DNA of 64,000 nt from Trypanosoma brucei (Eukaryota), in the NCBI GenBank assembly GCA_000002445.1, contig CP000068.1, forward strand, positions 832,001 to 896,000. Reading direction: 5' to 3'. The notes beneath the pieces are model-generated. The model did no database searches, was not told the DNA's origin, and saw only the letters and a list, made by a program, of their open reading frames with translations. Made by a program: the position numbers and the translations under genes. Position 1 is the stretch's first letter, and every line of letters begins with the position of its first letter. This document shows, piece by piece, positions 5,589 through 6,986 of the stretch.

Positions 5589-6986
5589 GTGTTTCTGGTG
5601 TCGGCTTTCCGCAGACGTTCAGTGGAAATGCACGTACTTGGCAGAGATCCTACGTCCAACTGCCTCCCCAATGCTAGTGGAGATGAGGCCAAACAAATGA
5701 ATGGGCGTGCACGTAACCCTTATGCTGCAAGAAATGGTTTCAATGTCAACAGCGGGGAAGAAACGCAATGTAGCCCGATTGGTTCACCTATAAACCCACA
5801 TTGTCGCGAGGGTTCTGGAGAATACGCGGTGCAACCCGTTAACGTACAGGCGCGTTACCGTCTGCAAAGCCCACCAATATCTTTTGCATCGGGAAATCCA
5901 TCATTTCCCACCTCACCGCGTGATAGTGCTCTACATTCCACGCCACACGTGCGTAGTTGCAGTAACTCTTTTCCTTGCGATGGATTTTGTAGGCCAAACC
6001 CTTCTGGCCAGACGTTTAGCCCGGCGATGGGGAGGTCCCCTGATTTTAGTAACGATCCCAACATGTGCATGCCACCGTACCCCGGCGGTTACACGCCTTC
6101 AGGTTTTGTTATGCCTCCTGCACTTGCAACGGCTGCACCACCACCTCGTACTGATGTGATGGGGCGCGCACCGGTACCCGACGGTCAAGCGTCCATGCGA
6201 CCCAAGCGGCCGGTGAGTTCACCCATCGCTTGCGGTCATGGCTCCCGTTACGTCTCACCGGTTGTGTTGTCCGTTTCACCAAATTATCAAGTTGGATCCC
6301 ACCCGCTGTGTAACCCAACAGGTCCCCAATCCGTTGGGTGTAATAATGTGCATGTTGCAGTTGGCAGCGTGGAGCCCGCTCAAAGCGCACACTCCAAAAT
6401 GACTACGGGTGATGGGAGTTCAACCGTGTCTGGTGGTAGTGGTAGCTCTATTCGTGAGGACTTACCCTTGTGTTCCAATGATGGCGTATGCACGTTAATT
6501 AACGACCGCAAACATCAGCGACGGTTTGCACATACCTGTCGTCTGTTCCCTTGTTATCATGGACACATAGCGCGGCATTCAAAACTGTTCCGGCATGCAC
6601 CTGGACAAGTTGCACAGTCGGAGGAACTGCTCAACAACGGCGATGGGTCAAAGAAACTTCCTGCAGAGGCGCTGACAAGCGTAAGTTTCAGTTCTATCAG
6701 TCGCGAGGCCGCCAACGCCTATCGTATCATTGTTAGTCACAGAAATAAAAGTTATGAAATATTCGGTGACTGGATGAATGTCCGTGTGCATACCTTTAAG
6801 CGTTACTTAAATCAGGTGTATAACGTGCCGCCACCATCGCAAGTGCTAGTGCGGGAGGAAGGCAATGTCCCACTCGATGACGATCTTGAATCTGTAGGAC
6901 ATTATGGCATTAAACAGGATGGTGTGGTGATTCTAAGGTGGAAGGATGAAGATGAGCCTCTTGCTGTTTCTCTTGAACAGCTGTAA
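5589..6986 (+). CDS. Hypothetical protein with tandem PBZ-like CCHH zinc fingers (C-x5-C-x7-H-x3-F-x-H, then C-x4-C-x7-H-x3-F-x-H; nt 6471-6596) and a C-terminal ubiquitin-like beta-grasp domain (nt about 6721-6942).
   Basis: 465-aa ORF. The motifs CSNDGVCTLINDRKHQRRFAH and CRLFPCYHGHIARHSKLFRH reproduce the spacing of PAR-binding zinc fingers. The C-terminus (VPPPSQVLVREEGNVPLDDDLESVGHYGIKQDGVVILRW) aligns by eye with ubiquitin's [37 protein letters not shown]. The start codon is uncertain (several in-frame Met). Confidence 0.7.
   Translation: MFLVSAFRRRSVEMHVLGRDPTSNCLPNASGDEAKQMNGRARNPYAARNGFNVNSGEETQCSPIGSPINPHCREGSGEYAVQPVNVQARYRLQSPPISFASGNPSFPTSPRDSALHSTPHVRSCSNSFPCDGFCRPNPSGQTFSPAMGRSPDFSNDPNMCMPPYPGGYTPSGFVMPPALATAAPPPRTDVMGRAPVPDGQASMRPKRPVSSPIACGHGSRYVSPVVLSVSPNYQVGSHPLCNPTGPQSVGCNNVHVAVGSVEPAQSAHSKMTTGDGSSTVSGGSGSSIREDLPLCSNDGVCTLINDRKHQRRFAHTCRLFPCYHGHIARHSKLFRHAPGQVAQSEELLNNGDGSKKLPAEALTSVSFSSISREAANAYRIIVSHRNKSYEIFGDWMNVRVHTFKRYLNQVYNVPPPSQVLVREEGNVPLDDDLESVGHYGIKQDGVVILRWKDEDEPLAVSLEQL

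Follow-up and report, generated by a model that had tools for sequence, protein, structure and literature searches.

We examined a 64,000-nucleotide stretch of Trypanosoma brucei DNA (GenBank assembly GCA_000002445.1, contig CP000068.1, positions 832,001 to 896,000 of the forward strand; here called the window) and the gene Tb927.5.2620 that lies near its start. All coordinates below are those of the window. An initial annotation, made from the sequence alone, had placed at 5589-6986 a hypothetical protein that joins tandem fingers resembling PBZ, a poly(ADP-ribose) (PAR)-binding zinc finger, to a C-terminal ubiquitin-like domain (Ubl). The open reading frame (ORF) at 5589..6986 (+) is indeed present, but its left boundary is merely mechanical, being the first GTG downstream of a stop. 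The actual start is the ATG at 5628, and with the stop codon ending at 6986 the coding sequence (CDS; 5628..6986, + strand) specifies 452 amino acids plus the stop codon. The product, a kinetoplastid-conserved "hypothetical protein" with a pI of 8.2, is 100% identical to XP_844934.1 / AAZ11375.1 from T. brucei TREU927 and to TEOVI_000011400 from T. equiperdum. We placed the window on chromosome 5 by means of the Pol beta / Pol beta-PAK gene pair and then fixed the gene by matching the cloning primers listed for Tb927.5.2620 in Table S6 of Erben et al. 2014 (ATGCACGTACTTGGCAG / TTACAGCTGTTCAAGAGA). These coincide with the two CDS ends (5628 onward and the reverse complement of 6969-6986) and cover its first 17 and last 18 bases. 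Tb927.5.2580 and Tb927.5.2590, which were considered as identities for the gene, are both other genes and were excluded. No credible gene was found on the strand opposite Tb927.5.2620.

A six-frame regular-expression scan of the window recovered the pattern C-x5-C-x7-H-x3-F-x-H at exactly 6471-6533 and the pattern C-x4-C-x7-H-x3-F-x-H at exactly 6537-6596, and neither occurred anywhere else; both patterns had been reported at these coordinates in the initial annotation. When the protein was shuffled 200,000 times with its composition preserved, at least one finger match arose at a frequency of 5e-5 and at least two at 5e-6. Finger 1 (6471..6533, + strand) reads C282-x5-C288-x7-H296-x5-H302, with the signature CP.D..C..IND..HQ..[FY].H, and finger 2 (6537..6596, + strand) reads C304-x4-C309-x7-H317-x5-H323. 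The two abut through a single-residue H-T-C linker, which gives a 22-residue period. Conservation of the Cys and His ligands, which the initial annotation had proposed as a check, proved complete: all eight (C282, C288, H296, H302, C304, C309, H317, and H323) are invariant in 23/23 aligned kinetoplastid orthologues, drawn from Trypanosoma, Leishmania, Leptomonas, Phytomonas, and Porcisia together with more divergent sequences. F321, D285, N292, and Q297 are likewise invariant in this alignment. No other part of the protein is conserved as well as the finger block, whose core is 81% identical to that of T. brucei both in T. cruzi and in three Leishmania species; across four Leishmania species, Leptomonas, and Porcisia the range is 74-81%, and the ligands do not vary there.

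The finger module is basic (pI = 9.9), and finger 2 in particular carries R305, H311, R316, K319, and R322 along with F307 and Y310. H311 and H313 were considered as additional ligands, in a cross-braced or three-zinc site, and were ruled out because diplonemid homologues do not retain them. An AlphaFold2 (AF2) model of the fingers alone reached a predicted local distance difference test score (pLDDT) of 83.8. Fold searches with this model were uninformative, because fingers of the PBZ type mostly lack secondary structure (PMC4030884).

To place the fingers among known families, we compared them with the published PBZ consensus, [K/R]xxCx[F/Y]GxxCx[K/R][K/R]xxxxHxxx[F/Y]xH, which amounts to C-x5-C-x7-H-x5-H (PMC4756826, PMC4030884). 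The consensus of Ahel et al. 2008 served as the benchmark, and the PAR-contacting residues were taken from reviews of PBZ. The likeness to PBZ (PF10283, zf-CCHH; APLF, CHFR, SNM1A) lies in a C2H2 knuckle of about 21 residues that occurs in tandem and, for finger 1, in further features: the ligand spacing is exactly the published one, an aromatic side chain precedes the last His by two positions, Pro follows Cys1, and Asn lies four positions past Cys2. Finger 2, with its C-x4-C and shortened loop, departs from this spacing. Across 74 homologues, 91% of finger 1 sequences have F or Y at the aromatic position, and every finger 2 sequence (100%) has F there. The positions that contact PAR are not kept in finger 1, which has C-P-N-D in place of [F/Y]-G and C-T-L-I in place of [K/R][K/R]; Asp occupies the PBZ Gly position in 99% of finger 1 sequences in the same set. 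Finger 2 reads C-R-L-F-P-C-Y-H and keeps, of the PAR-contact residues, only the Tyr that follows Cys2. The arrangement differs as well, since the gap between the last His of APLF finger 1 and the first Cys of APLF finger 2 is about 17 residues, compared with one residue here.

Profile comparisons gave a similar picture. The match to Pfam PF10283 that the initial annotation had expected was absent at E ≤ 10, both with the whole protein and with the 60-residue finger segment, whereas the APLF control scored 98.7 bits (E = 1.6e-28). Direct profile-profile alignment (hhalign) of the kinetoplastid fingers with APLF, whose profile consisted of two sequences, gave a probability of 5.6% (E = 0.007), in the right register. 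A profile search of the Protein Data Bank (PDB) with the two APLF fingers returned APLF chains only and no CHFR.

We then searched the 60-residue finger profile against 1.84 billion (1.84e9) representative proteins. At the cut-off of E ≤ 1e-3 it retrieved 69 proteins, and those that are not orthologues fall into two groups. Members of the first carry the same pair of fingers, and those whose source was looked up come from diplonemid transcriptomes (Hemistasia and Artemidia); many begin with an N-terminal transmembrane helix and have a related Ubl after the fingers. Members of the second are arrays of 4 to 16 contiguous fingers that share with the kinetoplastid pair the ligand spacing, an [ILV]-N-D signature ahead of His1, the H-x-C junction, and the 22-residue period. 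Every scanned array protein that has another Pfam domain bears a PAR-metabolizing enzyme: a PARP catalytic domain in P0069 (PF00644, 6.5e-19), a PARP domain in P0083 that at 21.9 bits lies under the 26.7-bit cut-off, and a microbial-type PARG domain in P0088 from Diphylleia rotans (PF10021, 8e-14). The arrays of P0073, P0075, and P0085 stand alone. In most array fingers the Gly that PBZ has after Cys1 is retained. By comparison, the kinetoplastid protein has one such finger with Asp for Gly, a C-x4-C partner, and no PAR enzyme domain.

The arrays connect the kinetoplastid fingers to PBZ. By hhalign, the kinetoplastid fingers align with the arrays at 97.6% probability (E = 3e-12), and the arrays align with the two-sequence APLF profile at 80.6% (E = 1.3e-5). 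Array fingers that retain C-K-Y-G come close to the PF10283 threshold of 22.7 bits, scoring 21.6 and 20.9. As a further control we built a hidden Markov model (HMM) of the PARP/PARG-linked array fingers and scored against it 3000 shuffles in which the four ligands were held and the remaining residues were permuted. T. brucei finger 1 scored 30.2 bits and APLF finger 2 scored 18.2 bits, and in each case 0/3000 ligand-fixed shuffles scored as high. In the same test finger 2 of T. brucei resembled neither the arrays nor APLF outside the ligands; its similarity to finger 1 is weak (10 bits, p = 0.003). Because the arrays were retrieved with the kinetoplastid profile, their similarity to finger 1 is partly selected; the link from the arrays to APLF and the Pfam near-matches are independent of that retrieval. 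Judged by their sequences, (i) finger 1 belongs, as a divergent member, to a PBZ-related "N-D" family of fingers; (ii) finger 2 is a derived, Euglenozoa-specific partner; and (iii) neither is a canonical PBZ, so that by the curated definition the protein falls outside PBZ. The label "PBZ-like" in the initial annotation therefore survives at the level of the superfamily, for finger 1 only and transitively through the arrays. It does not extend to PF10283, to the replaced contact residues, or to the C-x4-C of finger 2.

Several homologues combine the same parts differently. P0061 and P0066 have the reverse order, with the Ubl ahead of the fingers. Among the nonkinetoplastid proteins with fingers and a Ubl, P0058, P0060, P0061, P0063, P0064, P0066, P0070, and P0076 have an N-terminal transmembrane helix and long low-complexity linkers. 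The two-finger module sits on the tails of multipass membrane proteins in P0074 and P0079, and it adjoins zinc ribbons in P0072 and P0081. In two distant homologues, P0077 and P0087, it stands beside a C-x8-C-x5-C-x3-H (CCCH-type) motif that we spotted by eye. Finally, the arrays of P0069 and P0083 (both from JGI metagenomes) and of P0088 comprise 10-16 fingers that the Pfam PBZ model misses or scores below threshold.

PBZ fingers have been reported to coevolve strictly with PARPs (Perina 2014), and the phyletic distribution of the kinetoplastid protein bears on whether PAR is its ligand. Here we rely on Perina 2014 and Vilchez Larrea et al., and the loss of PARP and PARG is taken from the literature for L. 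major only. A single PARP and a single PARG are present in T. brucei, and under basal conditions PARP in trypanosomatids lies outside the nucleus. Both enzymes are missing from L. major (PMC3680488). Leishmania, Leptomonas, and Porcisia nevertheless keep the protein with invariant ligands and with no relaxation of constraint. The fingers thus do not follow the co-occurrence with PARP that is reported for PBZ: they are retained in L. major at 81% identity to T. brucei, the same value as in T. cruzi. A PAR-reading function is disfavored because the fingers stay conserved in this species. A precedent for a PBZ finger that has lost the critical PAR-binding residues is that of SNM1A, which has been suggested not to bind PAR (PMC4756826).

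The second conserved unit of the protein is the Ubl (residues ~362-440; 6711..6947, + strand). An AF2 model of residues 271-452, built from a 16-sequence alignment, reaches a pLDDT of about 88 across a beta-beta-alpha-beta-beta-(3-10)-beta unit, and the beta-grasp that the initial annotation had expected of such a model is seen there. In a Foldseek search against the PDB, all 425 matches at E ≤ 1e-3 were Ubl domains, among them ubiquitin, NEDD8, ISG15, and Hub1; for these four, E ranged from 1e-6 to 6e-5 and the target-normalized TM score from 0.84 to 0.90, with a root mean square deviation (rmsd) of 1.2-1.4 Å over about 78 columns. Sequence profiles gave fainter signals. The C-terminal alignment, searched against PDB profiles, found weak Ubl matches (ISG15, E = 0.017; BAG6, UBCP1, and elongin B, E of 0.3-2) and neither APLF nor CHFR. 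In the T. brucei Ubl segment Pfam PF00240 was absent and RAWUL alone appeared, at E = 0.17, while the diplonemid homologue P0061 matched PF00240 at E = 0.0025, under the cut-off. A beta-grasp domain is therefore real, as had been claimed, and it is complete, not limited to the C-terminal half of ubiquitin. The claim was also not new: the protein is a "Ubiquitin-like domain-containing protein" in UniRef/UniProt, and a "ubiquitin-like C-terminus" is noted in Erben et al. 2014.

Neither the T. brucei protein nor any orthologue has a Gly-Gly at the C terminus; the domain ends in ...VVILRWKDEDEPLAVSLEQL and is followed by a 12-residue tail. In the absence of Gly-Gly, we regard the domain as an integral Ubl and not as a conjugatable modifier. 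Its signature, G-D-W..V.VHT.KRYL.QV, falls in the beta2-alpha1 region, which is the most conserved surface of the domain. Ahead of the Ubl lies a conserved linker or N-terminal extension (residues 346-361, "EALTSVSFSSISREAA"; 6663..6710, + strand), in which L349, S351, V352, I357, and A361 are invariant in the orthologue alignment and model confidence climbs from about residue 355. The same alignment defines a C-terminal tail, AVSLEQL (6963..6983, + strand), of the form hydrophobic-x-hydrophobic-[DE]-[DEQ]-L-COOH; the extreme C terminus is LEDL, LDDL, LDEL, VDEL, or VNEL in most orthologues and LEQL in T. brucei. This tail may be a docking motif. Kinetoplastid endoplasmic reticulum (ER)-retrieval tetrapeptides such as MDDL resemble it, but a role as an ER-retrieval signal was ruled out, since the kinetoplastid proteins have no signal peptide or membrane segment on inspection by eye.

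Integral, nonconjugatable Ubl domains joined to a ligand-binding module are known from Ubl adaptors such as the Rad23/Dsk2 shuttles, BAG6/UBL4A, and ZFAND4/ANUBL1, in which a Ubl is combined with an AN1 finger. The protein shares this plan. It differs from these adaptors in that its Ubl is C-terminal and not N-terminal, in that UBA, UIM, and AN1 are absent, and in that the conserved surface is the beta2-alpha1 region and not the Leu8-Ile44-Val70 patch.

The remaining part of the protein, residues 1-270 (5628..6437, + strand), is rich in Ser, Pro, and Gly and is poorly conserved. Its first 260 residues are 13-30% identical to those of orthologues outside the brucei group, versus about 80% in the fingers, and no Pfam domain was detected in it. 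Short motifs do persist, including NV..RYR.QSP and SYAP.GF..PP. Another is R-N-P-Y (residues 29-32; 5712..5723, + strand), a candidate MKT1-docking motif of the type [H/R/N]-x-P-Y, which the alignment finds at the equivalent N-terminal position in 17/23 orthologues. T. brucei and T. congolense share RNPY; T. vivax has HNPY, T. rangeli HQPY, T. cruzi HHPY, and Leishmania HSPY. Set against the published MKT1 motif, (H/N)(D/E/N/Q)PY (Singh 2014, PMC3985637), HNPY and HQPY fit, RNPY is off at the first position, and HHPY and HSPY are off at position 2. According to Singh 2014 and to a preprint, MKT1 reaches mRNAs through RNA-binding proteins that bear this motif, and the mRNA is then stabilized through PBP1 and the poly(A)-binding protein PABP.

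Tb927.5.2620 has already appeared in several published screens and is not an undescribed gene. When tethered, its fragments raise expression of a reporter mRNA (Erben 2014 Table S3, sheet "Increase expression"), where three locations show an increase of at least 3-fold and enrichment averages 12.8; tethered ubiquitination components and proteases tend to suppress expression. On an array of cell-free-expressed proteins, the full-length product bound poly(A)+ RNA on 3/3 slides (ratios 2.18, 1.72, and 1.96; p from 8e-9 to 3e-6) and total RNA on 3/3 slides (ratios 2.33, 2.65, and 2.17), in a buffer that contained heparin and tRNA competitor; all three replicates were positive for poly(A)+ RNA at only 47/384 spots. 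The protein also copurified significantly from bloodstream forms with XAC1, a subunit of the MKT1-PBP1-LSM12-XAC1 complex, where it was scored "++" (log2 ratio of 4.59, 9 peptides, absent in three GFP controls). The other "++" proteins of that purification include MKT1, MKT1L, PBP1, LSM12, PABP2, DHH1, and RNA-binding proteins bearing HNPY. TrypTag localizes the protein to the cytoplasm, in points, and its overexpression was enriched 15-fold among melarsoprol survivors.

From this body of evidence we favor, with moderate confidence, an account in which Tb927.5.2620 encodes a kinetoplastid-specific protein of cytoplasmic messenger ribonucleoproteins (mRNPs), an mRNA-binding activator with PBZ-derived fingers that has membrane-anchored relatives in diplonemids. 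As predicted from the ligand pattern, each of the two adjacent C2H2 knuckles would bind one zinc (through C282/C288/H296/H302 and C304/C309/H317/H323). The fingers, descended from the PBZ type, would together form a basic nucleic-acid-binding module that tethers the protein to mRNA. The N-terminal [H/R]xPY, and perhaps other parts of the protein, would recruit MKT1-PBP1-LSM12-XAC1. That complex would bring poly(A)-binding protein, and the bound mRNAs would be stabilized, better translated, or both. The Ubl, which cannot be conjugated because it has no Gly-Gly, may serve as a docking surface for a further partner. Within this account, we infer that the fingers are the RNA-binding element from their conservation and charge and, by analogy, from the kinship of PBZ with CCCH fingers, its recognition of adenine, and the CCCH-type motif beside the module in P0077 and P0087: PBZ is structurally nearest to the tandem CCCH fingers that bind single-stranded RNA, and its aromatic residues recognize adenine (PMC4030884). 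By the position and form of the motif in the alignment, RNPY is a putative MKT1 contact.

The nearest functional parallel is with the MKT1-recruiting activators ZC3H11, ZC3H20/21, ZC3H32, and ZC3H37/38. Like these, Tb927.5.2620 combines a small zinc-finger module that binds RNA (here putatively) with a low-complexity region and a motif of the H-x-P-Y type, raises a reporter when tethered, and associates with MKT1-PBP1-LSM12-XAC1. The fingers of the known activators are C-x8-C-x5-C-x3-H, whereas those described here are C2H2 and PBZ-derived, and the C-terminal Ubl has no counterpart described for those activators in the sources examined. Some points weigh against our preferred account. The RNPY of T. 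brucei falls outside the strict published consensus, and the protein is absent from the MKT1 two-hybrid partners in Table 4, in the main text of Singh et al. 2014 (PMC3985637), and is marked "nd" for the motif in the published list from the XAC1 purification. The protein array was a high-throughput experiment with full-length protein, and its authors warn of nonphysiological electrostatic binding. The copurification with XAC1 could be indirect and bridged by RNA. In a table of the VSG-mRNA proteome, read by its row values with the column meanings not checked, Tb927.5.2620 matches the neighboring rows and does not stand out. Lastly, an mRNP activator model leaves the role of the Ubl unexplained.

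Other accounts were weighed against the same observations. The fingers might instead be a protein-protein or ubiquitin-binding module whose RNA signal on the array was electrostatic, in which case the protein would be an adaptor or regulator of the MKT1 complex and would use its Ubl to connect that complex with the proteasome or the ubiquitin system, for instance with the SKP1/CFB2 F-box proteins, which also bind MKT1. The family at large gives this some weight: the module lies on the predicted cytosolic side of many N-terminally membrane-anchored homologues and also on multipass tails (P0058, P0060, P0064, P0071, P0074, P0079, and P0089), a distribution that fits a general docking module better than a reader of mRNA. 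CFB2 and Skp1 belong to the MKT1 network, C2H2 knuckles of the UBZ kind bind ubiquitin, and UIM/UBA or proteasome receptors are the classical docking partners of Ubl domains. We nonetheless consider this account unlikely, as 6/6 RNA slides were positive despite heparin and tRNA competitor, with a whole-protein pI of only 8.2, as the tethered protein activates whereas ubiquitination components and proteases tend to suppress, and as no similarity to the UBZ family was found in Pfam.

The proposal of the initial annotation, a DNA-damage or PAR-signaling adaptor, would have the fingers read PAR or ADP-ribose made by TbPARP, with the Ubl passing the PARylated target to ubiquitin receptors or the proteasome. 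The PBZ spacing of finger 1, the retrieval of arrays fused to PARP (P0069, P0083) and PARG (P0088), the array fingers just under the PF10283 cut-off, and the hhalign chain from fingers to arrays to APLF all speak for it, as do the C-Y-H that finger 2 keeps (cf. C-Y-R in APLF), F307 in its first loop, and the single PARP, extranuclear under basal conditions, and single PARG of T. brucei. Set against these are the silence of PF10283, the poor direct alignment with APLF, and the N-D and L-I of finger 1 at the consensus [F/Y]-G and [K/R][K/R], reminiscent of SNM1A. Further points against it are the fingers of L. major, equally conserved where PARP and PARG are missing, and the cytoplasmic points, RNA binding, activation on tethering, and copurification with XAC1, which put the protein in cytoplasmic mRNPs and not at DNA lesions. 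We judge the adaptor proposal improbable. The remaining alternative, that the Cys/His pattern is due to chance or is a structural motif that does not bind zinc and that the resemblance to ubiquitin is spurious, is effectively refuted by the rarity of two matches in shuffled proteins, the invariance of the eight ligands in kinetoplastids and their presence in distant homologues, including those in diplonemid transcriptomes, the 69 significant matches among 1.84e9 proteins, the pLDDT of the finger-only model, and the close superposition of the Ubl; the silent fold searches are accounted for by the scant secondary structure of PBZ. A bolder form of the preferred mRNP account, which we put forward as possible but doubtful, is that the two-finger module is an unrecognized RNA-binding domain derived from an adenine-reading PBZ. 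In Euglenozoa, a module that once read PAR would have come to read poly(A) or adenosine-rich RNA instead. It would then have been distributed among dozens of diplonemid proteins with membrane anchors, and in kinetoplastids it would couple mRNA to the MKT1 complex and, via the Ubl, to a further pathway. If true, such a conversion would explain why the module survives unchanged in Leishmania that lack PARP and PARG.

Tb927.5.2620 sits in a + strand polycistron whose Pfam-matched members, interspersed with ORFs that have no Pfam match, run in the order Methyltransf_32, Tb927.5.2620, an NMNAT-like protein of the cytidylyltransferase fold, ALO, SDA1, an IQ-motif protein, inositol monophosphatase, otubain, ZPR1, a TBC RabGAP, a weakly matched hydrolase, and a galactosyltransferase-like protein. 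A - strand cluster encoding a SET-domain protein, Pol beta, Pol beta-PAK, tRNase Z, and a kinase meets this polycistron at about 40-44.6 kb, where a convergent strand-switch region (39766-44626) contains a single tRNA-Glu(CTC) gene (42266-42337, +). Downstream of the Tb927.5.2620 stop codon, about 4.9 kb (6987-11913) contains no ORF of at least 110 amino acids save low-complexity artifacts; an Rfam search of this interval found no family, and its repeats are all of the simple kind, namely (TA)n/(TATATATGTT)n, A-rich, and TCCA. For intergenic DNA or a 3′ untranslated region (3′ UTR) of T. brucei this is an unusual length, and the stretch may be a long regulatory 3′ UTR of Tb927.5.2620. About 6 kb downstream of the gene, a 366-amino-acid ORF (12964-14064, +) has a cytidylyltransferase-like fold (PF01467, 2e-9) with the motif GSFNPMHKTH, and we take it to resemble a nicotinamide/nicotinate mononucleotide adenylyltransferase of NAD synthesis. 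Its proximity to a PBZ-related gene is probably coincidental; trypanosome gene order is not operon-like, and for that reason we did not use this neighbor as functional evidence.

Other neighbors are recorded for orientation. An otubain-family deubiquitinase (24633-25439, +; PF10275, 7e-74) shares the polycistron, and no functional link is implied. The adjacent family-X polymerases, Pol beta and the longer Pol beta-PAK (47457-48680 and 50351-52792, -), lie near Tb927.5.2780/2790. A 1030-amino-acid protein kinase (59329-62421, -) may, by gene order, be Tb927.5.2820, which is listed as an MKT1 partner by two-hybrid/tandem affinity purification (Singh et al. 2014, PMC3985637). On the upstream side, the kinetoplastid protein P0039 (1315 amino acids) appears by eye to fuse a homologue of the Methyltransf_32 protein (encoded at 31-2712 of the window) to a homologue of Tb927.5.2620. 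The fusion is probably a gene-model run-through, and it would indicate that the order of the methyltransferase gene and the finger-Ubl gene is conserved in another kinetoplastid.

A literature search for PBZ in kinetoplastids found no description of the Tb927.5.2620 protein; the PBZ column for T. brucei in Table 2 of Perina 2014 can be read in more than one way. The initial annotation had known of no such protein; the gene and its Ubl were in fact on record, and it is the zinc fingers that have apparently never been noted. What appears to be new in the searched literature is thus the zinc fingers, their PBZ ancestry, the "N-D" family on protist PARP and PARG enzymes, and the N-terminal HxPY-like motif. 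For the ADP-ribosylation field, the arrays represent a broad, unannotated "N-D" variant of PBZ on such enzymes, and they suggest that PF10283 underdetects a whole PBZ subfamily. A PBZ relative that persists without any PARP also offers a natural test of whether fingers of this type read ligands other than PAR. The two-finger module defines a domain family across kinetoplastids, with relatives in diplonemid transcriptomes. In trypanosomes, gene expression is regulated almost wholly posttranscriptionally, and the MKT1 complex is a central activator that RNA-binding proteins deliver to mRNAs. Tb927.5.2620 has surfaced repeatedly in screens (tethering, RNA array, XAC1 purification, and melarsoprol survival) with no annotated RNA-binding domain in the sources examined; the invariant, presumably zinc-dependent two-finger module gives it a concrete, mutable candidate for RNA recognition.

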